Below the pieces are notes generated by a model. That model saw nothing but the letters and a program-made list of their open reading frames with translations, did not search any database and had not been told where the DNA came from. Of a DNA stretch of 40,499 bases, positions 1 to 16,734 are shown piece after piece. How positions within the stretch are numbered: the first letter of the stretch is position 1; every line of letters begins with the position of its first letter. The DNA is from a virus (Duplodnaviria > Heunggongvirae > Uroviricota > Caudoviricetes): IMG/VR virus record IMGVR_UViG_2667527965_000002, one strand, 5' to 3'. A program made the translations under genes and the position numbers.

Positions 1-1314
1 TTAACTTACTGATTTTAATAATCCTCCAGTACTGCTCTCGTGGCTATGGGGCATCAATGGGGCAAAATCTGCCAGCTTCTGATTCAGCATTGCGATCTGC
101 TCTGCGCTGCTGTCAGCCATCCATGCACCGTAAACATTGAACACCATCTGCGCGCTCGCATGCCCCATCTGACTGGCAATAAAACTCGGGTTTGCACCAG
201 CAGATAATGACCAGCACGCATAGGTATGTCGTGACTGGTACGCCTTTCTGTGTCTGATCCCCGCGCGCTTTAGTGCCGCTTCCCATGAGTCGCCTACTGA
301 ATCGACCCGGTAGATAAATCCGACCTGCTTACTGCGTCTGACCACATGCGGGTTAAAGACGAATGTACACTCATGGGTCACCGAACGACCGTACTCACGT
401 AACTGCACTTCAATGTGATATTGCCTGCCCAGCCTTGTCATTTCAGCCTGATTTTTCAGGATGCTGATTGCGGGCTGGATAAGATGCACCACTCGATCTG
501 TGCTTGCCTCGGTTTTCGGTAGAGTGAACTCACCAAGTTTCGTATAATTACGCCTGACGGTAATTGTTCCCGCCTTCAGGTCGATATCTTCCCAGGCCAG
601 GGAGACCAGTTCCCCGTGACGCATTCCTGTGTACACTGCTAATGACCACAGGTTTTTCGTCTGCTGATGCCGGCATGCATCTATCAGGCGAATAAATTCA
701 TCACGAGACAGAGGATCTGGTTCTGCCCTGGCTTTTTTCAGAGGTTTAATTCCCTCGAATGGGTTCACCTCTAAGTAACCGTGATCCGCAGCAAACTGAA
801 ACATTCCGGCCATTGTCGTCATGTAATAGTTCACAGTAACAACGCTTCGCCCTTTTGCCGGGGCTTTATTTTTCGTCGGACTCTGATAACCAGTTAGCAA
901 ATCTTTCCTGAGATACAGCAATTCCTCTTTGGTTACTGCTGACACCAGGCGATTACCTCCGATCCTCGGCACCATATTCCTTGCGACAGATTCATAGCGA
1001 TTGAATGCGTTCGCGCAGATTTCCATCCGTTTCAGATCCAGCCATTTTTCTTCAAGTTCTTTCACTGTAATGTCTTTTTTACTTACACCAAAAGCCTTGA
1101 GGTTAGGGGAGTCAGGAAACTGGGTTGCATAATCAAAGGTTCCTGTGCGGATGGCAAAACATACTGATGTCCGCAGTTCCCCGGCTATCTTTCTGTTCTT
1201 AGCGGTGTCAGGGACACCGAGACTTTCCCTGACACGCTTACCTTTAAAATTAAACCAGATGCGTAATGTGCCACCGTGGTTTTCGACGCCTGTTGGATAT
1301 GTGACTTTATCCAT
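1..1314 (-). CDS. int: Tyrosine site-specific integrase
   Basis: 437 aa ORF; N-terminal arm-binding-like region and C-terminal tyrosine recombinase-like region; first gene at prophage edge followed by a small excisionase-like ORF. Confidence 0.9.
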   Translation of the reverse strand: MDKVTYPTGVENHGGTLRIWFNFKGKRVRESLGVPDTAKNRKIAGELRTSVCFAIRTGTFDYATQFPDSPNLKAFGVSKKDITVKELEEKWLDLKRMEICANAFNRYESVARNMVPRIGGNRLVSAVTKEELLYLRKDLLTGYQSPTKNKAPAKGRSVVTVNYYMTTMAGMFQFAADHGYLEVNPFEGIKPLKKARAEPDPLSRDEFIRLIDACRHQQTKNLWSLAVYTGMRHGELVSLAWEDIDLKAGTITVRRNYTKLGEFTLPKTEASTDRVVHLIQPAISILKNQAEMTRLGRQYHIEVQLREYGRSVTHECTFVFNPHVVRRSKQVGFIYRVDSVGDSWEAALKRAGIRHRKAYQSRHTYACWSLSAGANPSFIASQMGHASAQMVFNVYGAWMADSSAEQIAMLNQKLADFAPLMPHSHESSTGGLLKSVS

Positions 1315-1372
1315 TGGTGTTACCTCCAGACGCCCAAGAGCGATACGAGCTTACCTTTTTCATGGCATCAAA

Positions 1373-1609
1373 TCACCCTGGCTGCTTGCTTTTCATTGAA
1401 GCGACCCAGGCATCTACAGCCTTTCTGTTATACATGCACTCACTGGAAGGTTTAGGATTTCCGTCAGGCGATACGTGGATATACTCCCTCCCAATCATCC
1501 AGCATTCTTTTCTGGCCCGGAGGATGGTACCGGGCTTGAGCCCGGTCACCGCGATCAGAACACTTTCACAAACCCAATCGTTGGGAGCTAACTGGAAAAT
1601 ATTGCTCAT
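1373..1609 (-). CDS. xis: Excisionase-like DNA-binding protein
   Basis: 78 aa ORF immediately upstream of int on the same strand; GREY-containing motif typical of small phage excisionases. Confidence 0.6.
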   Translation of the reverse strand: MSNIFQLAPNDWVCESVLIAVTGLKPGTILRARKECWMIGREYIHVSPDGNPKPSSECMYNRKAVDAWVASMKSKQPG

Positions 1610-1649
1610 AGTTATTTCTCCATTATCCCGGCTGCACCCGGGGAAAATT

Positions 1650-2228
1650 TTAGTTGTTGCTGGTGGTTGGGATTAGTTTCTGCCAAATCGCTGAAACATA
1701 TTTCGCCTGGTGGCGGGCATCAGCCAGTGCGTTATGTGCAACCCCATCAAATGGCATATCACGCTTAGGATCGAAACCTACAACTCTGCCTAATGTGACG
1801 ATGGTTCTGACGTCGTGATCATTCCAAAATTGCCACGGGCAAACCTGGCCGGCACGCTCATATGCGCCGCGCAATATAACGTTGTCGAAAGTAGCTCCAT
1901 TGCCCCAAACTTTTAAATATTTAGGGTTATCAGAATGCCGATTAATGAAATGGCTCAGTTCAGATAGGGCAGATGATATCGGCATCGCATCATCAACACA
2001 GATTGCTGATCGTGCTTCTGAGCTTTGTCTTAACCACCACAGAATAGTGTCACCGTCCGGCACCGCTCCCTGCTCCATAGCGCTTTCAAGATTAACAGCG
2101 GTGTAAAACTCCTGACCCAGTTCACCACTTTGCGGATCGAATAACACGGCACCAATGGAGACGATAGGGGCATTCGGCTTTTTGCCCATAGTTTCAAGAT
2201 CGATCATTAAATTGTTCACGTTATACAT
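1650..2228 (-). CDS. DEDDh-type 3'-5' exonuclease (DnaQ-like)
   Basis: MIDLETMG Exo I motif and later H-x4-D (HNALADA) motif; ATG at 2228 overlaps upstream stop (ATGTATAA); the longer track ORF begins with a non-ATG codon. Confidence 0.75.
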   Translation of the reverse strand: MYNVNNLMIDLETMGKKPNAPIVSIGAVLFDPQSGELGQEFYTAVNLESAMEQGAVPDGDTILWWLRQSSEARSAICVDDAMPISSALSELSHFINRHSDNPKYLKVWGNGATFDNVILRGAYERAGQVCPWQFWNDHDVRTIVTLGRVVGFDPKRDMPFDGVAHNALADARHQAKYVSAIWQKLIPTTSNN

Positions 2229-2904
2229 TCTCTTGATTAGGTGCTGTTGGCTGGTCACATCCCACACATGGGCAAGGACACATATTTTCTGATTGCTGCC
2301 AGCGGAAATAACCTGTGCCACCGCAGTATTTACAAGTTGAACCATCCGGAGTTACCGGAGAGTTGCCAGCCTGGAGAATAGATTTCAGCGCTGCCCTTGG
2401 CATTGCCGACCAGGCAAGAAATACGTCTGGCCTGTCGACATCTTCTGTCGGGAGAGTGTTTTCGATTTCGTCCAGCGCATCACTTAGCTTCTGAAATGCG
2501 TCGTCTGGAACAACGTGGCACTCTTCGCCATCAACATCTTGCTGACAGCTATCATCTGCGAGTTCGAATGCGGCCCCGCAAACATTGAGCAGCATTTCAA
2601 TAACGCGACGGTGTTCTGCTGTTACGCAATTCTCCGGCGCTACCGGCGCTCTCGGCTTGCCCTGGCTATCTGACGGCGCTAACGGAGCGTTTCTCAGTGC
2701 AGTGGCCAGCATTTCAATATCTACTGGTGCAGGCTCAGCACCAAACGCCGCAATTGCCCCTTCAATCACCTTCACAGCATCAGCCATTGCGTAGCCGAGA
2801 TTACCGCCGTCGCTTTGTGCTGCTGCTTTGCTGAGTATTTCGCGTATCTGGTGCAGGCGCTCGAGTGATACAGGACCGTGCGCCGGGTGGTTGTTAGTGG
2901 TCAT
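2221..2904 (-). CDS. Hypothetical phage protein with C-terminal Cys-rich (CxxC/CPCPC) region
   Basis: ORF in early-left operon; start ATG at 2904 overlaps upstream stop (ATGA) with GAGG about 9 nt upstream; alternative start at 2913. Confidence 0.55.
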   Translation of the reverse strand: MTTNNHPAHGPVSLERLHQIREILSKAAAQSDGGNLGYAMADAVKVIEGAIAAFGAEPAPVDIEMLATALRNAPLAPSDSQGKPRAPVAPENCVTAEHRRVIEMLLNVCGAAFELADDSCQQDVDGEECHVVPDDAFQKLSDALDEIENTLPTEDVDRPDVFLAWSAMPRAALKSILQAGNSPVTPDGSTCKYCGGTGYFRWQQSENMCPCPCVGCDQPTAPNQENV

Positions 2905-3233
2905 GCTGCCCATCCTCTGCGTAGATGGCCCAGCGCGTAACGCGCTTCTATCGGGTCTTCTTCTTCATATTCACAATTGACGCTTTTAACCATTGCCACA
3001 CAGCACTCGTTGCAACACCGATAGGACATGAGTTCGCCGTCGAATTTCCACGTCGTACTACGATGGATTTCACCCTTTAAAATTTCGCCAGCGCAAATGT
3101 GACATTTATATTCACCGCGAGAGGTAACAATTTTGTTCGATAGTTCGGTATCGCATGGCGTACCGAAATCACCTTCAAAAAGGTCAAAGTACAGTGCGTC
3201 GTCTAAATCCTGTTTGTTGAGTGAGTTAGTCAT
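2901..3233 (-). CDS. Hypothetical zinc-binding protein (CxxC ... CCNECC)
   Basis: ORF with paired cysteine motifs; start at 3233 chosen because the ORF upstream on this strand ends at 3226. Confidence 0.5.
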   Translation of the reverse strand: MTNSLNKQDLDDALYFDLFEGDFGTPCDTELSNKIVTSRGEYKCHICAGEILKGEIHRSTTWKFDGELMSYRCCNECCVAMVKSVNCEYEEEDPIEARYALGHLRRGWAA

Positions 3234-3570
3234 TCCAGGCCTCCAGCTCGTTCTGTATTTCCTCGTCAACCTCATCATTGGTGGCGTTCTTATTGAGTGT
3301 GCGCCGGGCTTCTTTCAGATATGACTCACGGCGTTCATCGTACCAGGCTGAGAATTCAGGCGACAAACCGTACAGGTACCCGAAAAAAGCAACCCTGGCA
3401 TTGTCCTCAGCCATACGCTCAACCATGCAATAAGCTGTAGTTAGTGCCGCTTCACGGATGTAACCGCGCAGGTCGCGCTTGCGCCAATACGGGCTATGTT
3501 TCGAGTCGCAGCGGCCTTTAAATTCGACGGTCCAGCGACGGATGCAACGTGCGTTCAGAGATTTACTCAT
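3226..3570 (-). CDS. Hypothetical phage protein
   Basis: 114 aa ORF; ATG overlaps stop of upstream gene (ATGA at 3567-3570). Confidence 0.55.
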   Translation of the reverse strand: MSKSLNARCIRRWTVEFKGRCDSKHSPYWRKRDLRGYIREAALTTAYCMVERMAEDNARVAFFGYLYGLSPEFSAWYDERRESYLKEARRTLNKNATNDEVDEEIQNELEAWND

Positions 3571-3821
3571 TGTGCAGTTCCCTTTCTGGCTGTGTTTAAT
3601 AGCTGGTTAAACATCATGGTTAAGCTGTTACTACACCCAAACGGCATATCGTTAACACGGTATGTTGGAATGCCCTTGCGAACACCAGACTTCACGATCC
3701 GGCCGGTGCCATAGAGTTGCGATAATGCACCAGCGATCGAAGCTGTCTTTTTGTTTAAACCCTTAGCTATTTCAGCGCTGGTGGCGTTGGGGTGAGCCTG
3801 GAGATATTCAAATACGGTCAT
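3567..3821 (-). CDS. Small winged-helix DNA-binding protein
   Basis: 84 aa; N-terminal helix-turn-helix-like segment (SAEIAKGLNKKTASIAGALSQL); translationally coupled to neighbours. Confidence 0.55.
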   Translation of the reverse strand: MTVFEYLQAHPNATSAEIAKGLNKKTASIAGALSQLYGTGRIVKSGVRKGIPTYRVNDMPFGCSNSLTMMFNQLLNTARKGTAQ

Positions 3822-3985
3822 GGCGTTTTACCTTTACGTTCCTGTTCCAGTTGCACCAGAGACTCTTTTAATGCTGCGAACGTAGCGTCCAGTCTGGTGG
3901 CGACTTCGCGCATAAGCGGTGCATGCTTTGGTGGCAATTCAGCAACGGAGGCAAACGCCTCCGCTACGAGTTCTTTTACCTTCAT
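3818..3985 (-). CDS. Small hypothetical protein (55 aa), not in supplied ORF track
   Basis: Manual translation MKVKELVAEAFASVAELPPKHAPLMREVATRLDATFAALKESLVQLEQERKGKTP; ATG overlaps stop of HD gene (ATGA) and its stop overlaps ATG of next gene (ATGA). Confidence 0.4.
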   Translation of the reverse strand: MKVKELVAEAFASVAELPPKHAPLMREVATRLDATFAALKESLVQLEQERKGKTP

Positions 3986-4521
3986 GCGGCGCATTGGCGC
4001 TGCTCCATCAATTCGTTAAAGCGATTGATGAACATGCCGTATGACTGGCCAGGACGAACTGGATTGATAATGAATAAATCCGTTGGGACAACTCCCTCGA
4101 GGCATGGCCACACGGAACCTTCGTCAACCTCAAAATCGCGGCGTTCGCTGGCGAGCATCACCAGATCGGCATATTTCACAGTTGGGTGTTGTTCCGTCGG
4201 TAGGCCGAACTTCTGCCGAATGGCTGCATCCACGCGAGCTTCGATCACCTGGTAATCCGGAAGCAGGTGCTTAAGCGGGGATGGGATGTCCTGCAGGTAG
4301 GCTTCAGCAGCATCATGAAGCAGTGCTTCTAATGCAAACTCCTGCGGAACGAGGTGGCTGGTTAAAACGCTATGCTGGCCGACGCTATAAAACTCAGGAA
4401 GATGCCCTGCAAAACGGCAGATATGAGACAACGCGGTAGCAATATCCTCGATCACGATATCGTCCTGTTGGATATCGAGGTAATTAAAATGTTTGCCGGA
4501 TAATGTCTGAATGTAGCTCAT
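3982..4521 (-). CDS. HD-domain phosphohydrolase (YfbR-like 5'-deoxynucleotidase family)
   Basis: HD-domain-like H...HD...D spacing (SHICRFAGH...LLHDAAEAY...D); start at ATG 4521 preceded by GGAG; track ORF begins at an upstream GTG. Confidence 0.7.
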   Translation of the reverse strand: MSYIQTLSGKHFNYLDIQQDDIVIEDIATALSHICRFAGHLPEFYSVGQHSVLTSHLVPQEFALEALLHDAAEAYLQDIPSPLKHLLPDYQVIEARVDAAIRQKFGLPTEQHPTVKYADLVMLASERRDFEVDEGSVWPCLEGVVPTDLFIINPVRPGQSYGMFINRFNELMEQRQCAA

Positions 4522-4628
4522 GGTTTTCTCCATATTGGCGCGCTGCACCGCGCTATTAAATTAATGAATTGCTAAATTTAGCGTGCAGCAACCCAACCCA
4601 TGACATGGGTTAATTACGGTCTGGGGTA

Positions 4629-5546
4629 TTAGGCTGCGGGTTTTTGTGGCTGTTCTTCTTTGTACGAAAGAAGATCACACATCAGGTTTACTACTTTGCT
4701 GAATTGGAGTAGATCCGTCCCGGCCTGATGGCGCCATTGAAATGCTTTATCATCTTCATCGTTGAATGTTTGGGCTTGGGTATTGATGCGCGAAAAATGG
4801 AAATTTTCGGTGAGGATGAACGATACACCGCATCCTGCTAGCTCCATTTTATCAGCGGTAAAGCCGCTATTAAGGCTATCAACTAGCTCGCTTTGAATTG
4901 AGTCGTGTTCAGCTGAGTAGCGAATAACTTCATTTTGATCGGCAAGGCGGGACAGCTGGATATAATTGCCGACGGTAAACCCTTCAAAAGCATTGGCCAC
5001 GCCATTGATATAGTTTTTCAACCGCGTAGTTAAACCGTTCTTAATATCGCTAATGTTGATTGTTTCTGTTTTAACGGAACCGACAACTTTCACCAGCATA
5101 GCCACAGCCATACCGGCAATATTTTTATTGGTCGTATTGACCACTAATAGCTTTTCGTTGGTGCTGTACAACGCAAGGATCAGCGTTGATTTAACAAATG
5201 CCCGTTTACACAGGTCAACGCGGACGCTGTCGATAATTGCTAATCGTTCGATACGTTTGATTTTACTCCCGGACATATCTTCGATTCTTTGGATCCGTGC
5301 TGCGGCTTCCTTCAAAACAACATGCTGGGGAATGATTTTCTGATCATGGCGGATCACGATGGCATACCCACCTGATATTGGGGTGACCAATTCGCCAGTG
5401 ATCGGGTTTGGCACAAAAGAGGCGCGTGAAAACTCAGTTTCACCAATCTCGGAGTAGGGGAGTTCAAGCAGATGCCCCTCGATAGCTTCAATGCTAGGTA
5501 GTGTGGCGCGGTACACGATTGCGTTACGGAACTTAGGTAATTTCAT
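4629..5546 (-). CDS. rdgC: Recombination-associated protein RdgC-like
   Basis: 305 aa; N-terminus MKLPKFRNAIVYR and length match the RdgC family. Confidence 0.8.
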   Translation of the reverse strand: MKLPKFRNAIVYRATLPSIEAIEGHLLELPYSEIGETEFSRASFVPNPITGELVTPISGGYAIVIRHDQKIIPQHVVLKEAAARIQRIEDMSGSKIKRIERLAIIDSVRVDLCKRAFVKSTLILALYSTNEKLLVVNTTNKNIAGMAVAMLVKVVGSVKTETINISDIKNGLTTRLKNYINGVANAFEGFTVGNYIQLSRLADQNEVIRYSAEHDSIQSELVDSLNSGFTADKMELAGCGVSFILTENFHFSRINTQAQTFNDEDDKAFQWRHQAGTDLLQFSKVVNLMCDLLSYKEEQPQKPAA

Positions 5547-5730
5547 TTAACTTTCCTCTGCACAAGGTTTTAGTCCATACACGAAGTTAAGGCGGCTGCC
5601 ACCGCCGAACTTTCTCCATACACAACAGAGAAGGGCACCTGCATTGGTCGGCGGCTTGAGAGACCGCTTTCTTTTTGCCCGGGTGGATTGGGTTATGAGC
5701 CCGTCGCCCGGTGATGCCCTTTTCTGTTGT

Positions 5731-5778
5731 GTAAAAAGGGCGGTACCAGCTAATTGATGGGATGTAACTGGTACCGCC
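5731..5778 (-). terminator. Strong hairpin (11-bp perfect stem GGCGGTACCAG, 18-nt loop) followed by a 5-U run on the minus strand
   Basis: Inverted repeat 5739-5749/5768-5778; plus-strand A-run 5733-5737 gives U-run after stem on minus strand. Confidence 0.45.
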
Positions 5779-6124
5779 AACACTTCACGCAGCATTCAAG
5801 TTGTGGCGCCAGGCGCTTGTCTTCTGGTTGTCTCGATGGACTGCAATTCACCACAACGAAGAGAACATTGCCGGTGTTCGAATCGAACGAACCTTTTCCC
5901 TGCCCAACCCTCCCAACTAAATGGGACTGTCTGGAATCGAACCAGCACTTATGCCTTGCTCGTCAATGTTCTCATCGTTGTGCCCTGAAAAAGGCTGGCG
6001 GTTACCGGAAATACACGGGAAAACACCGGGCCGCCAGAACAGGGAAGTACTTGTTATTGCTTTGGCCTGCTTTTAACCACATCAGGCGTGGTGGTATCTT
6101 GGTGTTCTCACACAACCAAGAGGG

Positions 6125-6328
6125 ATGTTTATGGGCGCTTTTGATAACCAGGAAATTACGTTACCCGCATGCCCTAAGTGCGGCACTAAGACGAAGAAGA
6201 AAATCGCTTGGCTCAAGTCGAACAAAAGTTTCACTTGTCGATGTGGAGCTACTATCAATGTCAACAGCAGCCAGCTTACTTCCGAAATCAGGATGGTTGA
6301 GGACAAGCTGAAGAAGCTCTTTAAATAG
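6125..6328 (+). CDS. Small zinc-ribbon protein (CPKCG-x17-CRCG)
   Basis: 67 aa ORF with purine-first codon periodicity, AGAGGGA upstream of ATG, and an intrinsic terminator 28 nt downstream; overlaps 3' part of the convergent ORF 6161-6526. Confidence 0.45.
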   Translation: MFMGAFDNQEITLPACPKCGTKTKKKIAWLKSNKSFTCRCGATINVNSSQLTSEIRMVEDKLKKLFK

Positions 6329-6526
6329 TTTTTTATCGACTGATATTATTTCGTTATCAGAGGTTGGTTTTTCAGCCTCTGATTTTTTAGTCAGGATCAT
6401 TTTTTCTACACATGTGACTACGCATTCCGAACAGATGGCAGGTTCGTCCTTACCACCTTTTGCGACGATCTTTATCGCTCCCAGTTCGGTTGCTCCGCAA
6501 AATGAGCATGTGAATAAATGATTCAT
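6161..6526 (-). CDS. ClpX N-terminal zinc-binding-domain-like protein, first gene downstream of the pL-like promoter
   Basis: N-terminal 45 aa (FTCSFCG ... KIVAKG ... ICSECVVTC) parallels ClpX ZBD (CSFCG ... KLIAG ... ICDECVDLC); ATG at 6526 with GAGG upstream; C-terminal two-thirds is low-complexity and antisense to ORF 6125-6328, so the true 3' extent is uncertain. Confidence 0.5.
   Translation of the reverse strand: MNHLFTCSFCGATELGAIKIVAKGGKDEPAICSECVVTCVEKMILTKKSEAEKPTSDNEIISVDKKLFKELLQLVLNHPDFGSKLAAVDIDSSSTSTSETFVRLEPSDFLLRLSAALRACG
6356..6388 (+). terminator. Rho-independent terminator, plus orientation
   Basis: Stem ATCAGAGG/CCTCTGAT with 12-nt loop, followed by TTTTTT. Confidence 0.6.
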
Positions 6527-6635
6527 GTAAACCTCTACCCCCAACCTAAGTTTTCTGTCAGCGAATCATCCGGTTATTCATATGCCACCGGCGGCTACTT
6601 CGTGGGCGTCCTGCCTGTTCGCTTTCGATGCAATG

Positions 6636-6665
6636 ACTATAGCTACATTAAGTAGATAATTGCAA
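6636..6665 (-). promoter_or_regulatory. pL-like promoter with embedded operator-like palindrome
   Basis: Minus strand -35 TTGCAA (6665-6660), 18-nt spacer, -10 TATAGT (6641-6636); spacer contains CTACATTAAGTAG. Confidence 0.45.
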
Positions 6666-6730
6666 CAACAAAAAGTAGAAAAATGAAATTTTTAGTAGTG
6701 TAGTGTTATGAGGTGAGGAATTTGAGGCGT

Positions 6731-6751
6731 AAAAAAACCGGCTTTCGCCGG
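6731..6751 (-). terminator. Rho-independent terminator after repressor gene
   Basis: Minus strand stem CCGGC/GCCGG with 4-nt loop followed by UUUUUUU (plus-strand A7 at 6731-6737). Confidence 0.65.
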
Positions 6752-6770
6752 TTTCTTGATGAATTAATTA

Positions 6771-7490
6771 TTAGCCAAACTCTATCATTTTTAGAGGTAA
6801 GCATCTGATTAGCTTGCCGAATATGTATAGTTCATTCATTTCATGCTCCTCTATGAAGAAGGGCGGGTAATGTTCATTGTCTGAAAGAACTGCCAGTCGG
6901 CGCCCTTTTACCTTCTGCAAACGTTTAACGAACGTACTGTCTTCAAAATTGAACACATAAACGCCGTCGCCGCTGAATTGTTCAACCTTGCTGTCTATGA
7001 AAAGCAGGTCCTTTGGGCAAAGCGTGGGCATCATGCTATCGCCATCAACATTTATCATGACGATGCCATCAAGGCTTCTACGACCAAACAACTCGAAGAT
7101 CCTCTCTTCTGGAATCTCTATTGAGCTCACTATTGTAGGGAATGGTTGGTTTATATATCCGGAACCGGCTGAAGCATGAACATCCAATTGCTCTATTCTG
7201 ACCGTGCCTTTGGCTGGCGCGTCGCCACCATTAACAGGCACACCATAATCAAGATAAGCCGGTGAGACGGCAAGTCTTTCTGCAATTCGAATCATCTTCT
7301 CATCTCTCGGCTTTGCAGTACCAAGAGTGTAGCGCCGCGCCATCTCATACGAGACACCACTGAACTCTGACAATTCTTTAACTCCAATAGATTGCTCTTG
7401 GAGAGACCTGTTTAGCCTTTCGGCAAAGTCTTTGTATTTAGCATTTTCCACCATAAGTAGAAGATTAAGCGCACAAGGCATAGTTGTCAT
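6771..7490 (-). CDS. cI: CI-like prophage repressor (HTH plus S24 LexA-like peptidase domain)
   Basis: 239 aa; N-terminal HTH region and C-terminal GDSM ... K peptidase S24 motifs; divergent from Cro-like gene; no obvious SD so possibly leaderless, alternative start 7454. Confidence 0.85.
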   Translation of the reverse strand: MTTMPCALNLLLMVENAKYKDFAERLNRSLQEQSIGVKELSEFSGVSYEMARRYTLGTAKPRDEKMIRIAERLAVSPAYLDYGVPVNGGDAPAKGTVRIEQLDVHASAGSGYINQPFPTIVSSIEIPEERIFELFGRRSLDGIVMINVDGDSMMPTLCPKDLLFIDSKVEQFSGDGVYVFNFEDSTFVKRLQKVKGRRLAVLSDNEHYPPFFIEEHEMNELYIFGKLIRCLPLKMIEFG

Positions 7491-7502
7491 TTCTATTTTA
7501 AG

Positions 7503-7531
7503 TTGCTAATAATTGCTACTATGAGTAGTAT
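7503..7531 (+). promoter_or_regulatory. pR-like promoter with operator-like palindrome
   Basis: -35 TTGCTA (7503-7508), 17-nt spacer, -10 TAGTAT (7526-7531); palindrome CTACTATGAGTAG at 7516-7528. Confidence 0.5.
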
Positions 7532-7559
7532 TGATGCAGGCTTAGTCATAGGAGAACAC

Positions 7560-7817
7560 ATGTCATCTCAACACAAGAATGTAACAGCTAAAGCTGTGAA
7601 GGCGATCGGGTCGATTTCAGAGGTATCAAGGCGGTTTGAATTCCAATCAGTTCAATCTGTTGCGAACTGGATTGCAAAGAACCGAGTACCTTCTGAAAGA
7701 GTTATTCAACTCTGCCAATGGGGCGGATGGGTAGTAACTCCCCATCAATTACGACCTGATATTTATCCGAACAAAAATGACGGCATACCTTCCGCTAACA
7801 ACAATAGTCAACTTTAA
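7560..7817 (+). CDS. cro: Cro-like / YdaS-like HTH regulator
   Basis: ATG at 7560 with GGAG 5 nt upstream; first rightward gene divergent from repressor; VANWIAKNRVPSERVIQLCQWGGWVVTPHQLRPDIYP motif. Confidence 0.7.
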   Translation: MSSQHKNVTAKAVKAIGSISEVSRRFEFQSVQSVANWIAKNRVPSERVIQLCQWGGWVVTPHQLRPDIYPNKNDGIPSANNNSQL

Positions 7818-7848
7818 GTTGATTATTAACTACCAGAGGGAAATCAAC

Positions 7849-8412
7849 ATGGTAGACAGCATAAATACAGCAATCCGTCTGATGTGTAAGGCACACAAGC
7901 ATGGTCGCTTAGGTATGGCTTCCGATTTAGGGATGACTATCGACCAGTTCCACAACCACCTGTACCAGAAGTGTGGCAGTCGGTTCTTTACCTTGGCAGA
8001 ACTGGAACGGATGGAGGACCTGTCTGGTTCTTGTTACTTGGCCGAGTACCAGGCGAACCGCAAAGGGAAATGGCTGGTGGATGTTCCAACTGCTGAGAGC
8101 CTGGATAACGTTGAGCTGTACAGCATTGAGATGAAAGCGGCAGCAGCATCTGGTGAGCTGGCTAATGCCAAGATGGCAGCAGCGGCTGATGGGGTAATTG
8201 ATTCATCAGAGCGCAAAACGCTTTCAGAATTATTCAGTAAGAAGCTCCGCCACCAGATTCACGGGTTCCTGGGATTTATGGCGCTTTATGGGGTTGGTGT
8301 TTCAGATCAGGCGATTGACGTATTCGTTTCAACAGGCAGAAAAGGTGACGCCCGCGAGTGTGCAGCTCCGGGCGCCTTGGCGTGTCGTATCAGTGGAGAA
8401 ACTAACGCATGA
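7849..8412 (+). CDS. Putative CII-like / YdaT-like regulatory protein
   Basis: Position directly after cro; ATG 7849 with GAGGGA SD; assignment by position and general resemblance only. Confidence 0.45.
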   Translation: MVDSINTAIRLMCKAHKHGRLGMASDLGMTIDQFHNHLYQKCGSRFFTLAELERMEDLSGSCYLAEYQANRKGKWLVDVPTAESLDNVELYSIEMKAAAASGELANAKMAAAADGVIDSSERKTLSELFSKKLRHQIHGFLGFMALYGVGVSDQAIDVFVSTGRKGDARECAAPGALACRISGETNA

Positions 8413-8747
8413 ACAGTGTAACAACACAGTACCGCAGGTCGCAACTTATTGCTCGACCTATGCCGGGTGGAAAAGGTCCGGTGCAGTTCGTGTATGGGGT
8501 AATGGTATCCGGATGCTTTGAGCCTGTCTGCTACCAGTTTGCTGATTGGGTTGTAGGTGATTTCAACGGCCAGGCGGAGAAGGTCGAATGCGAGCACTCA
8601 ACAGATGGTTTAAAGACAGTTACGGCGTCCCTGTCAGGGTTATCCGGTGGGAACCAGAAACTCAACGGGTTATATACCTGCGCGACGGATATGAGCATGA
8701 GTGCTTCAGTCCACTCGAACAGTTCCAGCGTAAATTCAGGGAAATAG
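8409..8747 (+). CDS. Hypothetical protein
   Basis: ATG overlaps upstream stop (ATGA), GGAGAAA SD; the C-terminal half is low-complexity and overlaps an alternative-frame ORF. Confidence 0.35.
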   Translation: MNSVTTQYRRSQLIARPMPGGKGPVQFVYGVMVSGCFEPVCYQFADWVVGDFNGQAEKVECEHSTDGLKTVTASLSGLSGGNQKLNGLYTCATDMSMSASVHSNSSSVNSGK

Positions 8748-8800
8748 AGGGTCAGAATGAGCCTGTTAATGACATCGCGGCCAATAGTAATAAATCCTGA
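8588..8800 (+). CDS. Hypothetical protein (alternative frame, overlaps 8409-8747 and start of O-like gene)
   Basis: 70 aa ORF with GGAGAAGG SD; sequence looks more protein-like than the overlapping frame. Confidence 0.35.
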   Translation: MRALNRWFKDSYGVPVRVIRWEPETQRVIYLRDGYEHECFSPLEQFQRKFREIEGQNEPVNDIAANSNKS

Positions 8801-9665
8801 ACTTGCATACAGCATTGGCCTGAATGAGGCGATTGCTTTGCAGCAGATTAATTACTGGCTGCAAGAGACCAAATCAGGCATGGAAAGTGATGGTGTACGC
8901 TGGATTTACAACACGACAGAACAGTGGCTGGAGCAGTTCCCGTTCTGGTCTGAGTCGACCCTGAAGCGTACCTTCACCCGCCTGAAGACACTCGGCGTGC
9001 TCAAAATTGAGCAGTTGAACAAGTCTCAACGCGACATGACCAACTTCTACACGATCAACTATGAAAGCGAGCTTTTAGATGAAGTCAAAGTGACCGAATC
9101 GAAGAGGTCAAAATGCGCTGTTCCATCAGGTCAAAATGACACGATGGAAGAGGTCAAAGTGACACACTCCATCAGGTCAAAACGAACCGCTGTCATTAGG
9201 TCAAAATGCACTGATGATCCTACAGAGAATACAACAGAGAGTACTACAGAGATTACAGGTAAAGACTCTTGTCCGGTTGCAGGGCAACCAGACCCTGAAG
9301 TTGTGATTACTGATCAGGCGATTTTGGTGTTGTCCCATTTGAACCAAATCAGCGGATCCCGGTATCAGAAGTCAAAAACATCCCTGGAGAACATCCGTGC
9401 CCGACTGCGTGATGGTTACAGCGTTGCTGACCTGCAACTTGTTATCGACCTCAAACATGAGCACTGGCACGAGAACGACGAGCAGTACCAGTACATGCGA
9501 CCTGAAACGCTGTTCGGACCGAGGAAATTCGAGAGCTATCTGCAAAGCGCCACCCGCTGGGACCAGAAGGGACGACCCAAGCGCGCTGACTGGGGCGCTA
9601 AAAGGCGCGATGTGATGGATTTTGGTCCTGTTGATACAACGATTCCTGCGGGCTTCAGGGGGTAA
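8757..9665 (+). CDS. Replication initiation protein (O-like replisome organiser) with conserved phage C-terminal domain
   Basis: 302 aa; internal array of six GGTCAAA(A/G)TG iterons as in lambda O/ori; AGAGGG SD before ATG. Confidence 0.8.
   Translation: MSLLMTSRPIVINPELAYSIGLNEAIALQQINYWLQETKSGMESDGVRWIYNTTEQWLEQFPFWSESTLKRTFTRLKTLGVLKIEQLNKSQRDMTNFYTINYESELLDEVKVTESKRSKCAVPSGQNDTMEEVKVTHSIRSKRTAVIRSKCTDDPTENTTESTTEITGKDSCPVAGQPDPEVVITDQAILVLSHLNQISGSRYQKSKTSLENIRARLRDGYSVADLQLVIDLKHEHWHENDEQYQYMRPETLFGPRKFESYLQSATRWDQKGRPKRADWGAKRRDVMDFGPVDTTIPAGFRG
9083..9208. repeat. Candidate origin of replication: six iterons GGTCAAARTG spaced 23-24 bp inside the O-like gene
   Basis: Direct repeats starting at 9083, 9106, 9129, 9152, 9175 and 9199. 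Confidence 0.7.
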
Positions 9666-9667
9666 CG

Positions 9668-10111
9668 ATGAGCTTACTGAAAACTATCCAGATGTTTGTA
9701 GCTCAGAACCCTGGGCTAACCAACAAGCAGATAGCTGCAGCACTGACAGAATACGATATTCAGTCGGTTCAGCGTGCCGTATGCCGACTAGTTGATACAA
9801 AGCGTGCAACACGTAAACACGCGGGAAAGTGTTATCGCTATTACGCAGAACCGCCAGCAGATTGCCACTTCGAGGTTTTTGAACCAACCCCTGAAGTCAG
9901 CGCCCTGATGGAAACGGCGAAATGTGTGGAGTCGAAAGGCCTCTTTCACCGTGCCGCGACGATATACATGCAAGCGTTCAGCGTGTCAGCTATTGAATCA
10001 GAGCGAGCAGCAATTCTGGCAGAACGTCAGCGCTGTCTTGGCCTGGCTAAACCAGCGGTTATTTCTGAAGACGGGTGCTATCTGGCTGGTCGATTTTCGG
10101 GAGGTCGTTAA
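9668..10111 (+). CDS. PerC-like transcriptional activator family protein (putative)
   Basis: 147 aa; motif SKGLFHRAATIYMQAF resembles the PerC family KGLWRRAA motif; AGGGGG SD. Confidence 0.4.
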   Translation: MSLLKTIQMFVAQNPGLTNKQIAAALTEYDIQSVQRAVCRLVDTKRATRKHAGKCYRYYAEPPADCHFEVFEPTPEVSALMETAKCVESKGLFHRAATIYMQAFSVSAIESERAAILAERQRCLGLAKPAVISEDGCYLAGRFSGGR

Positions 10112-10779
10112 TGGGCTATTCACTGATTTACGCTGATCCGCCGTGGGAATACGGAAACACCATCAGCAATGGTGCAGCGGAAAACCATTACGGCACGATG
10201 AAACTCATCGACATAAAACGCCTGCCTGTCTGGGAGCTGGCTGCGGAAAATTCCGTTCTGGCCATGTGGTTCACCGGTACACACACCCGCGAAGCTATCG
10301 AACTGGCTGAGGCATGGGGTTTTAAGGTTCGGACCATGAAGGGATTCACCTGGGTGAAGCTTAACTCACTGGCAGAACAGCATATCAATAAAGCGCTTCA
10401 GGCTGGTGGTGTAGAGGACTTTTACGACTTCCTCGACCTGTTGAACGCTCAGACCCGAATGAACGGTGGTAACTATACCCGCGCCAATACCGAGGATCTG
10501 TTAATCGCTACCAGAGGGAAAGGTCTTGAGCGTCAGAATGCGAGCGTAAAACAGGTTATCTACAGCCCACTCAGCGAACACAGCTAGAAGCCAGCAGAAG
10601 CGCGTTACCGTCTGGAGCAATTATACGGCGATGTATCACGCATTGAGTTGTTCAGCCGCTGTTCGGCTCCCGGCTGGCATCACTGGGGAAATCAGGCAGA
10701 AAATCCTGATGTAATCATGTCACCTGGTTACGTTGGTAAACCTGCTCCGCTGCTGGAGGTGGCTTATGCAGGACGTTGA
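10111..10779 (+). pseudogene. MT-A70-family DNA N6-adenine methyltransferase interrupted by an in-frame TAG at 10585-10587
   Basis: DPPW motif (IYADPPWEY) near N-terminus; ORF stops at TAG after ...SPLSEHS but the same frame continues KPAEARYRLEQLYGDVSRIELFSRCSAPGWHHWGN to TGA at 10777-10779. Confidence 0.6.
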
Positions 10780-10984
10780 AGCACGTAACGCGCTTCGTAA
10801 CATCGCCAGAAGATGCAACGAGGAAATAACCGCTAAACGCAAGGCTAATCCTGGTATGAATTGTGACGAAATAGCCAGGCCAATTTTTAACGGTGCCATG
10901 GGGATGGTTAAGCAACTTGGCTTTACGCCATCTCATTTGTATCTCGAAGTCGGGATTCTGAACAAGCGGATTAAGGAGCGCTGA
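10766..10984 (+). CDS. Hypothetical protein
   Basis: ATG at 10766 preceded by GGAGG; 72 aa. Confidence 0.4.
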   Translation: MQDVEARNALRNIARRCNEEITAKRKANPGMNCDEIARPIFNGAMGMVKQLGFTPSHLYLEVGILNKRIKER

Positions 10985-10985
10985 A

Positions 10986-11306
10986 GTGAACAAACTTACC
11001 GTGAGACAAAGTGAAGTACTTGGTTCGATCGTGAACTATCAGCGCCGGTTCGGATTCCCTCCAACGATATGTGAACTGGCTGGGCTGATTGGTTGCTCAT
11101 CACCGAACGCTGCAGCGGAGCATGTGAAGGCCATAGCGAAGAAGGGATATATCTCAGTTGCGCCTGGAGTTTCCAGAGGGATTACCGTTATTTCAGCAAA
11201 CGATGAGGTAGACGCGATATCGATCATCAAGTCACTCATTAACGGTGATAGCGATTCAAGAGAACGCGCCTTGTCATGGCTGGAAGCGAGAGGTGTTCAG
11301 CAATGA
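10986..11306 (+). CDS. LexA-family N-terminal DNA-binding domain protein without a peptidase domain
   Basis: LTVRQSEVLGSIVNYQRRFGFPPTICELAGLIGCSSPNAAAEHVKAIAKKGYI parallels the LexA winged-helix domain; GTG start with AAGGAG SD; only 106 aa. Confidence 0.6.
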   Translation: MNKLTVRQSEVLGSIVNYQRRFGFPPTICELAGLIGCSSPNAAAEHVKAIAKKGYISVAPGVSRGITVISANDEVDAISIIKSLINGDSDSRERALSWLEARGVQQ

Positions 11307-11692
11307 AACTAACGTTGCCATTCCCGCCAACTGTTAACACCTATTACCGGTCCCCTGACCGCGGCGCGTTAAAGGGTAAGCATCTGATAAGTGAGATGGG
11401 GAGGAAGTTCAAGAAGAATGTTTACGCCTCTGTTGTGCAGCAGTACGGCGGTATACCTAAACCAGTTAACGTCAACGTTGAGGTAAACATAGTTCTTTTC
11501 CCGCCAGATAACAGACGGCGGGATCTGGACAACTACAACAAAGCGCTGTTCGACGCACTGACGAATGCCAGAGTCTGGGAAGACGATAGTCAGGTTAAGC
11601 GGATGGCTATCGAGTGGGGGCCGGCAGTAAAGCCTGGAAGGGTAGAAATAACGATCAGCCGTTTTGAAACTGTGGCGGGTGCAGCCGCCTGA
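11303..11692 (+). CDS. rusA: RusA-family Holliday junction resolvase
   Basis: MKLTLPFPPTVNTYY start and conserved D/N/K acidic residues; GAGAGG SD. Confidence 0.85.
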   Translation: MKLTLPFPPTVNTYYRSPDRGALKGKHLISEMGRKFKKNVYASVVQQYGGIPKPVNVNVEVNIVLFPPDNRRRDLDNYNKALFDALTNARVWEDDSQVKRMAIEWGPAVKPGRVEITISRFETVAGAAA

Positions 11693-11708
11693 TAAGTGGA
11701 GACAGAGC

Positions 11709-12434
11709 ATGAATCAGATGAACATCACCGTAATGTGCCAGGCACACCATACAGCAGCTGTTGGGCAGCAGATAACCATGTCCAGCCGTGAGATTGCAAA
11801 ACTGGTCGATTCCCGGCACAGCAATGTCTGCGTAACGATAGAGCGCCTCATGAATTCCGGTGTGATTGAAGGGTATGCTGCATTGCAGTACACCCATCCC
11901 CAGAACGGACAGACCTATCATCACTACGAAGTGAATAAGCGTGATAGCTATGTGATCGTTGCCCAGTTGTCACCAGAGTTCACGGCCCGACTTGTTGACC
12001 GTTGGCAGGAACTGGAGAGCAGCGGTGGAATGATTGTTCCACGGTCACTTCCTGAAGCTTTGCGCCTTGCTGCTGATCTGGCAGAACAGAAACAGCGCCT
12101 GAGTGAAGAACTGGCAGTAGCGGCACCGAAGGCCGAGTTCGTTGATCGGTATGTGACGGCTACTGGTTCAATGACTTTCCGACAGGTGGCCAAGCTGCTT
12201 AACGCCAAAGAGCCAGAGTTTGCGATGTTCCTGATTGAGAACGGCATCATGTACCGGCTTAACCGTGTTCTTACGCCAAAGAGCAAGCATATCGAAGCAG
12301 GGCGCTTCGAGGTGAAGACGGGCACGACAAACCAGACAAATTACGCGTTCAATCAGTCCCGCTTCACCGCCAAGGGTGTTCGTTGGATTGGTGGTCTGTG
12401 GGCAGAGCATATTGCTAAGGGGCAGGTAGCGTGA
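11709..12434 (+). CDS. Rha-family regulatory protein with KilA-C-like antirepressor domain
   Basis: N-terminal MSSREIAKLVDSRHSNV (Rha-like) and C-terminal FRQVAKLLN ... region; GGAG SD. Confidence 0.7.
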   Translation: MNQMNITVMCQAHHTAAVGQQITMSSREIAKLVDSRHSNVCVTIERLMNSGVIEGYAALQYTHPQNGQTYHHYEVNKRDSYVIVAQLSPEFTARLVDRWQELESSGGMIVPRSLPEALRLAADLAEQKQRLSEELAVAAPKAEFVDRYVTATGSMTFRQVAKLLNAKEPEFAMFLIENGIMYRLNRVLTPKSKHIEAGRFEVKTGTTNQTNYAFNQSRFTAKGVRWIGGLWAEHIAKGQVA

Positions 12435-13420
12435 GGGCATTACTGACACCTGAAGTGGCACCGATGACCGGGGTAGTGTTATTTCGCCCAGGCAGTGAAC
12501 TGATGCATCTGTTCAGACGTGGGCGTGTTCTTATCGAGCCACAGGCAGAGTCAATGGCTGAGTTACCGTCTGGTCTGCTGCCTGAGACAACTCAGGAGCT
12601 TCAGAATGATCCGTTAATGCGTGATGTCTTCGAAAATCAGAAGGTCATACATCGTGCAGGTGGACTCAATTCACTGGATGCTTGGCTCGAAAGAAAACTG
12701 GAATGTCAGTACCCACACAGCGAGTGGCACGATCGCAACTACACCATAACCCGGCATGCACCTGGCTCAATCCGCACGTGCTGGGGCTGTGACTTAAAAA
12801 TTCGTGATCAGTTCACTGAAGGTCTGGCGGGTATAGCCCGTGAAAACCTGGTATCCTGGCTACTGAAGGTTGTAAACGGCCAATTAGGTTTCAGTGAGGA
12901 CCACATTCTTACACTGCCGGAGTTTTGCTGGTGGATGGTCAGGAGCGACCTGGCTGATGAGATACCTGAAGCCGTAGCACATAAAGCTCTTCGTCTGAAG
13001 AAAGAGTCCCACCAGTCGGTAACACGTGAAAGCGATATTGTTCCGGCATTACCCGCCAAACAACTGGTACAGGAGAAAGCGAAAAAGATAGTGGCAATGA
13101 AGGTTGACCCAGAGACGCCGGAATCCTTCATGCTTAAACCCAAGCGTCGCCGCTGGGTGAATGAGAAATACACGAGATGGGTTAAGGCCCAGCCGTGCGT
13201 CTGCTGTAACAAGCAAGCTGACGACCCCCACCACCTGATTGGCCACGGGCAGGGTGGAATGGGTACAAAGGCACACGACCTGTTTGTGATACCTCTGTGC
13301 AGAGAGCATCACGACGAGTTGCATGCTGATCCTGTGGCATTTGAAGCGAAATACGGTGACCAACTGGTCTTGGTGTTTCGGTTTATAGATCGTGCGCTGG
13401 CAATCGGCGTACTGGCGTAA
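12431..13420 (+). CDS. DUF968-like phage protein with C-terminal HNH-like zinc motif
   Basis: 329 aa; C-terminal CVCC ... HHLIGHGQGGMGTKAHD ... IPLCREHHDELH motif. Confidence 0.6.
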   Translation: MRALLTPEVAPMTGVVLFRPGSELMHLFRRGRVLIEPQAESMAELPSGLLPETTQELQNDPLMRDVFENQKVIHRAGGLNSLDAWLERKLECQYPHSEWHDRNYTITRHAPGSIRTCWGCDLKIRDQFTEGLAGIARENLVSWLLKVVNGQLGFSEDHILTLPEFCWWMVRSDLADEIPEAVAHKALRLKKESHQSVTRESDIVPALPAKQLVQEKAKKIVAMKVDPETPESFMLKPKRRRWVNEKYTRWVKAQPCVCCNKQADDPHHLIGHGQGGMGTKAHDLFVIPLCREHHDELHADPVAFEAKYGDQLVLVFRFIDRALAIGVLA

Positions 13421-14119: not shown

Positions 14120-14716
14120 ATGACTTGGCAAAACGTACCGTACGCTTTCGAAAAAACTACTGGCGAGTTGACCTTGGTAATAGAAAAATTACCGCCAATT
14201 GAAATCAGTTCTTCCTTTCCTTTTGAAACACTCATTACTGCTCTTGCAGGCGTTATTGCCGCAGGAATAACTGGTTGGGTTGCATACAGGGCAATCAAAG
14301 AAAATTTTGCCTTAGCCACATTACAGGCTCACTTGAATACTAATAAAGAATTGGCGCAACAAATACGTTTTGCTGGTGCTGAGCACGTGACAGACGTAAT
14401 TATGTTGGCCAGCACATTTGAGCAATGGCATCTGGTCGGAAATAAGAATATGGATATATTGGCTAAGGGTGTCTTCCCTGAAGAGATTCAAGTTCCAATA
14501 AAGGCCGCTGAAATAAGTAAAAATAAATTACTTCTATTAATAAGGCCTGATGAGGAAGGTTGCAAGTTGATAACCCTGACGGCAGATCTTCAAAAAGCGC
14601 TAAAAGTATGTTTTAAAAAAGGGTATTTTACTCCGGAAGAAAAAAAGTCATTTATTGATGCACAAAACGCCTTTATTTTTGGGTGTCATGAGTATATCAA
14701 TCAAAGTTTATCTTAA
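14120..14716 (+). CDS. AT-rich moron: hypothetical single-pass membrane protein
   Basis: 198 aa with one hydrophobic helix (residues about 33-56); strong SD AGGAGG; flanked by intrinsic terminators; lower GC than surrounding genes. Confidence 0.6.
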   Translation: MTWQNVPYAFEKTTGELTLVIEKLPPIEISSSFPFETLITALAGVIAAGITGWVAYRAIKENFALATLQAHLNTNKELAQQIRFAGAEHVTDVIMLASTFEQWHLVGNKNMDILAKGVFPEEIQVPIKAAEISKNKLLLLIRPDEEGCKLITLTADLQKALKVCFKKGYFTPEEKKSFIDAQNAFIFGCHEYINQSLS

Positions 14717-16363: not shown

Positions 16364-16526
16364 AGTAACGGACACGGCCTGTGACTGGGTGAGCATCATC
16401 TACCTCACTGAGCACGATATTGCCGTGCTGGATAAACAGACGAAGCGGGACATATTGGCGCACAACAAATCAGTGCAGGCTAACTGCATGAAGGAGCCAG
16501 GTCGTGAACGTAGAGAACCTAAGTGA
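16284..16526 (+). CDS. o-spanin (Rz1-like) lipoprotein, out-of-frame overlap with i-spanin
   Basis: Signal peptide ending LTASC lipobox-like; embedded/overlapping arrangement typical of spanin pairs. Confidence 0.45.
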   Translation: MYSKLLVIFLMTMLTASCAKNLPAKPEVTDTACDWVSIIYLTEHDIAVLDKQTKRDILAHNKSVQANCMKEPGRERREPK

Positions 16527-16734
16527 CGCGCATTACATCTATAACGAGATGAAAGAGCTACAGCGACAGAAAGGCATACTGGAAAGCGGTGCCGGACTTG
16601 GGGTGACAATCCAGTCGACCTATCAGGATAATGCCTTTCTTGATGCCATACGCCCGCATGCAGTGGATGAACTTGATCGGCGTATAGAGGAGAAAAAAGA
16701 TGTACTGGTTAATTTGGGCCTCTCCTTCTCTTAA
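16504..16734 (+). CDS. Hypothetical small protein
   Basis: GTG start with AGGAG SD; 76 aa. Confidence 0.3.
   Translation: MNVENLSDAHYIYNEMKELQRQKGILESGAGLGVTIQSTYQDNAFLDAIRPHAVDELDRRIEEKKDVLVNLGLSFS

Follow-up and report, generated by a model that had tools for sequence, protein, structure and literature searches.

A premature amber codon probably makes an ordinary nonsense pseudogene of the MT-A70 methyltransferase gene in a lambdoid-type Escherichia coli prophage

The only characterised relative that we found for the prophage methyltransferase gene considered here is M.EcoPA8orf6770P (gp5 of the Stx2a phage PA8), a prophage-encoded protein of 208 aa. Together with PNB-2, a protein of about 143 aa whose gene lies directly before its own, it has 16S rRNA as its preferred substrate for methylation, and disruption of the PA2 copy by IS629 lowers spontaneous induction and virulence, both of which are restored by the intact gene (PMC10810198). 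The MT-A70 clade to which our gene belongs is widespread in enterobacterial prophages. Its closest homologues in isolated phages are those of Cronobacter phage phiES15 (80% identity) and coliphage HK639 (gp35, ADO67719.1; 79%), the matches spanning 92% of the length, and a homologue at about 75% identity is present in many temperate phages of Klebsiella. Both HK639 and phiES15 are temperate, and their methyltransferase genes are intact, without a premature stop. METTL3, METTL4 and Tetrahymena MTA1 have the Pfam family and the order of motifs in common with the protein described below, but the identity is only about 17-21%, and these eukaryotic MT-A70 enzymes are obligate heteromers that act on mRNA, snRNA or DNA and carry extra domains. 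In METTL3, His512, Lys513, Arg536 and His538 surround the carboxylate of SAM, whereas Asn549 and Gln550 hold its ribose, an N549A/Q550A mutant being inactive (PMC5023411).

The locus lies in a stretch of 40,499 nucleotides (IMG/VR record IMGVR_UViG_2667527965_000002), called the window throughout, which is a lambdoid-type E. coli prophage integrated beside yecE (DUF72)/yecN/cmoA. Its early-right operon begins with a replication-like gene, an ORF of 147 aa, the MT-A70 gene and an ORF of 72 aa, and continues with genes for a LexA-DNA-binding-domain protein, RusA, an antirepressor, a DUF968 protein and a Q-like DUF1133 protein. The methyltransferase frame starts at the ATG at 10111-10113, which is the start codon used by every annotated homologue, opens with MGYSLIYADPPWEYG..., carries DPPW as residues 9-12, and ends with ...SPLSEHS at a TAG that is codon 159. 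Past the TAG the same frame continues, beginning with KPAEARYRLEQLYGDVSRIELFSRCSAPGWHHWGNQ... and reading KPAEARYRLEQLYGDVSRIELFSR...WGNQ..., for 63 codons as far as a TGA at 10777-10779. In these respects the sequence reads as had been described in an earlier note, made from the DNA letters, which reported an ORF with DPPW ending at TAG 10585-10587 after ...SPLSEHS. The coordinates of the features are collected in Table 1. A longer, GTG-start ORF (10075-10587, 170 aa) overlaps the gene upstream and is a mechanical artefact; its exact 170-aa product is not in the protein collection, and the start at 10075 was rejected.

Table 1. Features of the methyltransferase locus in the window (all coordinates are window positions)
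Feature	Coordinates	Strand	Description and basis
Upstream 147-aa ORF	9668..10111	+	TAA overlaps the methyltransferase ATG (TAATG); weakly PerC-like
Shine-Dalgarno GGAGG	10100..10104	+	6 nt 5' of the methyltransferase ATG; direct reading of the sequence
MT-A70 probable pseudogene, 5' fragment	10111..10587	+	158 sense codons and premature TAG; translation, Pfam, PGAP
Premature amber codon	10585..10587	+	T for C at 10585: CAG (Gln159) to TAG
Untranslated same-frame 3' remnant	10588..10779	+	63 codons and TGA; K-P, RIELFSR and WGNQ motifs
Downstream 72-aa ORF	10766..10984	+	14-nt overlap with the original methyltransferase stop; CDS in 7/7 genomes

The affiliation of the gene was assessed on the 222-aa protein obtained by restoring glutamine at the stop, which matches the Pfam profile MT-A70 (PF05063) with 91.8 bits (E=6e-26; gathering cut-off 23.9). 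The 158-aa fragment alone scores 57.2 bits, its residues 3-91 covering profile positions 1-86, and the 63-aa tail, taken by itself, aligns with positions 137-172 of the 172 in the profile (E=0.0011). Because the tail matches the very end of the profile, the continuation is family sequence and not a frame that is open by chance, in line with the earlier proposal that these 63 codons are typical of the C-terminus of the family. Both halves of the protein align by HMMER with solved MT-A70 enzymes (E 1e-7 to 1e-10). In the residue-level alignments, which were made with MTA1 and METTL4, DPPW aligns with the DPPW of either enzyme, and D9, P10 and W12 are invariant among relatives; in the second half, SEHSQKPAEARYRLEQLYGDVSRIELFSR...WGNQ pairs with RGQSQKPEEIYQYINQL...LEIFARR...IGNE of Tetrahymena MTA1 and with GDFSRKP...LELFARE...WGNE of METTL4, the alignment reaching the last residues of the catalytic domain. 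An AlphaFold model of P0009, an intact E. coli homologue 81% identical to the window protein, is of low confidence (mean pLDDT 62.5); with this low-confidence model, Foldseek returned the METTL3 catalytic domain first, over the full length (E ~1e-9, TM ~0.5-0.57). Judged by its Pfam match, the DNA is that of an MT-A70 family member, and its predicted translated product is an incomplete enzyme.

M.EcoPA8orf6770P is 44% identical to the window protein over the full length (E=9e-59) and has DPPW, HSxKP, RIELF and WGNQ in common with it, the window protein differing by an insertion of about 23 residues around residues 88-115. There are further parallels and differences. An ORF of about 145 aa overlaps the methyltransferase start in PA8, and the 147-aa ORF does likewise in the window, where it weakly resembles PerC (Pfam PF06069, E=6e-4, under the gathering score) and in each of the seven E. 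coli genomes described below it sits beside the methyltransferase gene. This ORF has no similarity to PNB-2 detectable by BLASTP (E=21), and the weak Pfam matches of the two are to different families, PerC and HTH_11, respectively. The PA8 gene is situated near attL/int and that of HK639 in the left arm near int, with neighbours unlike those in the window, whereas the window gene is in the replication/nin region. The natural knock-out in PA2 is an IS insertion with a measured phenotype, and that in the window is a nonsense codon. The 147-aa ORF may possibly encode a partner subunit of the methyltransferase, and the analogy with the PA8-type two-subunit holoenzyme is suggestive, although membership in that group is not established by it. 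The earlier assignment of the gene to the MT-A70 family holds; the designation 'phage methylase' that had been given to it is not to be taken for that of a proven DNA methylase, the sole characterised relative acting mainly on 16S rRNA.

What the TAG replaces could be read from intact alleles. Megablast of a 901-bp region of the locus against 5,426 complete E. coli genomes gave seven copies, one of which, in strain FAM21845, is 100% identical over the whole region. The other six, in ET5, TST3, GDSC2BY4G, 2017C-4173W12, PCP07014 and 23CRST032, have an intact CDS of 669 nt in the corresponding position of the operon, with which the 669-nt frame of the window is colinear, without indels, and in every one of them codon 159 is CAG. 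The ET5 gene is a single base apart from that of the window, at gene position 475, which corresponds to window position 10585 (C vs T), and relative to this allele there is thus no other lesion in the window gene. The six intact copies with CAG and the single-base difference from ET5 point to a C-to-T transition at 10585 that changed Gln159 to an amber codon; CAG and AAG had both been named beforehand as the likely original codon, and it is the former that is found. The ET5 allele (WP_097429096.1, in NZ_CP101014.1) is annotated as an MT-A70 family methyltransferase of 222 aa, and ET5 has the operon and the integration site in common with the window, differing in that its codon 159 is CAG and its protein full-length. 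In FAM21845 (NZ_CP017220.1, 2066992-2067660) the 669-nt sequence is identical to that of the window, TAG included, and is recorded by PGAP as RefSeq pseudogene BHT24_RS10855, 'MT-A70 family methyltransferase, internal stop'; from the integrase to the DUF1133 gene its surroundings match those in the window gene for gene. The pseudogene status is therefore already known, in that the NCBI pipeline flags the identical FAM21845 copy with 'internal stop'.

In the more divergent of the intact copies, codon differences are 24-33 synonymous vs 5-8 non-synonymous before the site, and after it synonymous and non-synonymous differences stand at 6:2, 6:3 and 8:5, and at 5:5 in the most divergent comparison, with PCP07014. 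From these ratios the full-length frame, when intact, looks to be under purifying selection, although the 63-codon tail alone gives little power. In a wider set of 120 cluster representatives with at least 72% identity, drawn from a large protein collection, column 159 is always a sense residue (E in 63, A in 29, Q in 26 and S in 2). Around and beyond it, H157, S158, K160, P161, R165, R177, W189, W192 and G193 are invariant among relatives, and conservation is 90% or more at I178, E179, L180, F181, R183 and N194. Intact homologues ending naturally at this point would have spoken against an interrupted gene, but not one of the 120 representatives stops at residue 158; apart from the shortest, which reaches position 173 and bears the label partial, they all extend to position 206 or beyond. 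The phage collection yielded no megablast match to the region, its homologues being found at the protein level only, and the exact 27-nt site had no match in the species-representative genomes. The 3' remnant is without secondary decay, which fits equally well a very young pseudogene and a frame still in use.

All of K160-P161, IELFSR (178-183) and WGNQ (192-195) is encoded 3' of the TAG, at 10588-10779. METTL3 reads ...STSHKPDE...KIELFGRPHN...LGNQ... over the corresponding part, and we take its SAM residues to correspond to Q159/K160, to IELFSR (R183) and to N194/Q195 of the window protein. On this alignment, the C-terminal SAM-binding elements, that is the equivalents of METTL3 K513, R536, N549 and Q550, are not in the translated 158-aa product, and in the low-confidence P0009 model (pLDDT 62.5) a helix at 161-172 and a strand at 178-182 also belong to the missing part. 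Since the truncation removes the equivalents of these four residues, the product, which keeps the DPPW loop, would be unable to bind SAM properly or to complete its fold, and is very probably inactive.

The amber allele is moderately widespread. The exact 158-aa product is present in 21 contigs (NCBI, Logan and ENA) vs 122 for the exact intact parent in the cluster table, and it is indexed in 31 blocks of a public assembly collection, with at least 24 carrying contigs. GCA_047527315.1 and GCA_964007115.1 are among the carrier genomes. The identical 669-nt gene was found in all 10 loci fetched, of which two came from NCBI assemblies and eight from sequencing runs of their own (Logan), and one of the four IMG/VR prophage contigs that hold the site has the TAG. 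Over window positions 8347-13230, a block of about 5 kb, carriers show 0-1 differences, against seven in ET5, which is the nearest intact relative. Rightward, the carriers break away at four points, 13231, 14531, 15501 and 16478. FAM21845 has two differences from the window over 1-13230, and its right arm, with the late half, diverges from 13231 on; since its late half is unlike that of the window, the window comes from another strain. A prophage of strain SZQ1, which is not among the genomes with the methyltransferase region, shares 99.9% identity with the right half of the window. A near-invariant block of about 5 kb joined to different late-gene modules indicates a single mutational origin in what would be a young haplotype, and that the early module later recombined with different late modules or, alternatively, was inherited while prophages recombined with one another. 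A recent nonsense mutation, which was among the options put forward in the earlier note, is thereby supported, yet the allele is found in many assemblies and is not private to one strain.

The reading that we favour, with a probability of roughly 93%, is that a single point mutation turned a prophage MT-A70 methyltransferase gene into an ordinary nonsense pseudogene, whose product is predicted from homology with METTL3 to be inactive. The gene would normally encode an N6-adenine methyltransferase of 222 aa. With the C-to-T change at 10585, which converts the CAG of Gln159 into amber TAG, ribosomes would release a 158-aa fragment in which the catalytic DPPW loop is kept and the last third of the fold, with most of the S-adenosylmethionine contacts, is lost. 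The mutation would have arisen once, in a haplotype that apart from it hardly differs from the intact ET5 allele, and the dead allele would then have travelled as a passive passenger of the prophage early module, reaching many strains and becoming joined to several different late-gene modules.

Other explanations of the stop codon were considered, and one of them, a sequencing or assembly error in a genome that in truth reads CAG, deserves virtually no credence. It has on its side that a single-base substitution is a possible type of error and that the nearest intact allele differs at that base only. However, the identical TAG occurs both in the window and in the finished genome of FAM21845 with its different prophage right arm, as well as in two more NCBI assemblies, at least eight Logan assemblies and one IMG/VR contig, and the sequences that bear it lie in at least four flanking contexts. 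The stop is real in the organism and is not an artefact, and the option of a sequencing error raised at the outset falls to the presence of the identical allele in many independent assemblies. Suppressor-dependent or leaky readthrough into a functional full-length enzyme, by which the allele would be conditional or attenuated instead of dead, appears to us extremely unlikely. An A directly after the stop would make a context favourable for supE suppression, the 3' remnant is intact in all carriers, glutamine at the UAG would restore the native Gln159 exactly, and other insertions would probably be tolerated as well, given that relatives accept E, A, Q and S at this position. In E. coli, near-cognate decoding of UAG does insert glutamine according to a statement for which the source itself cites earlier work (PMC9481147). 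The same study nevertheless puts UAG readthrough, in a reporter in E. coli MG1655, at about 1/500 of the UGA value of 12%, that is about 0.02% (PMC9481147), and from such published rates we infer that readthrough is negligible here. ARAGORN found no tRNA gene in the window. In FAM21845, the glnX-glnV-metU-glnW-glnU cluster was located by synteny and its anticodons were read directly; no supE change was seen in this one carrier, glnV and glnX both having the wild-type anticodon CTG, so that, as far as these two genes of FAM21845 go, the check for an amber suppressor that had been advised came out negative, and the tRNAs of the prophage region of this strain (a Met/Ile-type CAT, Thr and Gly) are not suppressors. 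The supE44 allele is in any case rare, with 155 of 5,424 E. coli records, and among the matches listed (60) all are laboratory strains or their evident derivatives. No stimulatory RNA structure was found after the TAG, the segment 10570-10690 being no stabler than shuffled sequence (z = -1.23). Programmed recoding sites are conserved, but the TAG is confined to one near-invariant haplotype and occurs in 0/120 homologue clusters, all other homologues having a sense codon, and an undamaged remnant is to be expected for an allele so young (0-1 SNPs over about 5 kb). Programmed or suppressor-dependent readthrough is thus not supported, and the corresponding option of the earlier note is left without support by the lack of a tRNA gene in the window, the wild-type glnV and glnX of FAM21845 and the want of conservation of the stop.

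Two further possibilities accept the stop and give the allele a role. The 158-aa fragment could have a function of its own, dominant-negative or regulatory for instance, by sequestering the 147-aa protein or a nucleic-acid substrate. It has a strong ribosome-binding site, is coupled to the upstream ORF through TAATG and retains the DPPW substrate loop, and MT-A70 enzymes are often heteromers, as in METTL3-METTL14 and M.EcoPA8orf6770P-PNB-2 (PMC5023411, PMC10810198); yet stable folding would be unlikely without a helix and at least one strand of the predicted C-terminal third, and no naturally short homologue family was found among the 120 cluster representatives, for which reasons we hold such a function to be very unlikely. 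Selection for loss is the other possibility: silencing of the methyltransferase may benefit the lysogen through lower spontaneous induction, or through the removal of adenine methylation that is toxic or provokes restriction. This idea shares with ours the view that the gene is dead and departs from it only in its account of the frequency of the allele. It draws on the IS629-disrupted homologue of PA2/PA8 type, which lowers spontaneous induction and virulence (PMC10810198) and whose PA8 enzyme is 44% identical, on the occurrence of the TAG on at least 24 contigs and at least four right-arm backgrounds, and on several other truncated variants in the same 90% identity cluster, with lengths that include 75, 110, 145 and 154/155 aa. 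However, the exact intact parent outnumbers the truncated product about fivefold (122 vs 21 contigs), the numbers are accounted for just as well by clonal descent or hitch-hiking of one near-invariant haplotype, homopolymer errors in assembly could be the source of the other truncated variants, and the operon differs from that of the PA8 gene, its upstream neighbour being unrelated to PNB-2. Selected loss is therefore doubtful in our view. A narrower version, that the amber allele is a selected switch-off, or a leaky attenuation at about 10^-4 in which readthrough puts back the native Gln, of an enzyme that normally promotes spontaneous induction, relies on the PA8 analogy and seems distinctly unlikely; if it were true, the lysogen would gain a quieter prophage, and this would explain the presence of one nonsense haplotype in two dozen assemblies and at least four late-gene backgrounds, and perhaps also the other truncated variants of the same gene.

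For an ordinary nonsense pseudogene, the favoured reading, 10111-10779 is to be annotated as one pseudogene and not as a 158-aa 'methyltransferase' followed by an orphan ORF, and in methylome studies of carrier strains no mark would be expected from the MT-A70 gene. Nonsense pseudogenes are commonplace among the accessory genes of prophages, and this one is of little importance by itself. The one-base allele pair of ET5 (CAG) and FAM21845 (TAG) could, however, be used to probe the role of the clade, with regard to DNA or rRNA as the substrate and to induction.

The consequences for the neighbouring genes are probably slight. A promoter and terminator scan of 9500-11500 found nothing. The 178 nt that have lost translation show neither an excess of C nor a shortage of G (C/G at most 1.05), and on grounds of this composition and of the ribosome-binding site of the next gene, strong Rho polarity on the downstream genes was judged unlikely; we would expect little polarity there. 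The 72-aa ORF has its own GGAGG at 10755-10759 and is thereby independent of ribosomes arriving from the methyltransferase frame.

The methyltransferase gene is translationally coupled, through a TAATG overlap at its start, to a 147-aa ORF located immediately upstream, and the two are adjacent in all seven E. coli genomes considered (FAM21845 and six with an intact gene), such that the arrangement is conserved. The match of this ORF to PerC (PF06069) is weak and sub-threshold (E = 6e-4). The database protein P0032 (357 aa) harbors both PF05063 and PF06069, and both P0032 and P0132 (262 aa) look like in-frame fusions of the 147-aa ORF and the methyltransferase. A functional partnership between the two products would fit with the existence of such fusion-like proteins. 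PNB-2, the specificity subunit of the MT-A70 enzyme of phage PA8, corresponds to the 147-aa ORF product in size and position, but shares no sequence similarity with it.

Features of the prophage and of related copies (L008, FAM21845; L009, ET5; L014, Logan SRR21939972)
Feature	Location	Strand
Integrase, left prophage end	window 1-1314	minus
S24-peptidase repressor	window 6771-7490	minus
147-aa ORF	window 9668-10111	+
106-aa LexA DNA-binding-domain protein	window 10986-11306	+
ET5 'internal stop' pseudogene	L009 28492-28722 (about window 16504-16734)	
IS element	L014 8398-9485	
tRNA-like gene	L008 33785-33858	

Further truncated variants of the methyltransferase, with frameshifted tails, were found within the 90% identity cluster of P0121, the counterpart of window 10111-10587. 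Their lengths are 75 aa (P0123, P0125), 110 aa (P0126, P0130, P0134), 145 aa (P0133) and 154/155 aa (P0127, P0124), and some of them are represented by 2-3 contigs. These variants could reflect either recurrent independent inactivation of the gene or homopolymer assembly errors. Among carriers of the TAG allele, the Logan SRR21939972 copy contains an IS element with HTH_Tnp_1 and rve transposase ORFs. Its insertion point follows window position ~17456 and separates the lysis region from the HNH/terminase genes, which gives that prophage copy a second mark of decay. The ET5 prophage, in which the methyltransferase is intact, has another pseudogene with an internal stop, annotated as a hypothetical protein and located after the lysis genes.

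Outside the window, ARAGORN predicted in FAM21845 a tRNA-like gene that is absent from the RefSeq annotation and is flanked by prophage-borne tRNA-Met/Ile(CAT) and tRNA-Thr genes. Its anticodon, as reported by ARAGORN, has two bases. The gene most likely represents a degenerate or unusual tRNA and is not an amber suppressor.

The 106-aa protein encoded two genes 3′ of the methyltransferase gene is annotated as 'LexA family protein' (PF01726 in the precomputed hits); it consists of the LexA DNA-binding domain alone, without a peptidase domain, and is distinct from the prophage's own S24-peptidase repressor.

The prophage as a whole is a mosaic with a breakpoint near 13231. Window 1-13230 is almost identical to its FAM21845 counterpart, with 2 differences, and window 20001-40499 shares 99.9% identity with a prophage of E. 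coli SZQ1, which lies outside the set of genomes with the methyltransferase region. In other TAG-allele carriers, different late modules take over at window positions 14531, 15501 or 16478. The integrase-side left end is bordered by the yecE (DUF72)/yecN/cmoA/cmoB site in both FAM21845 and ET5.
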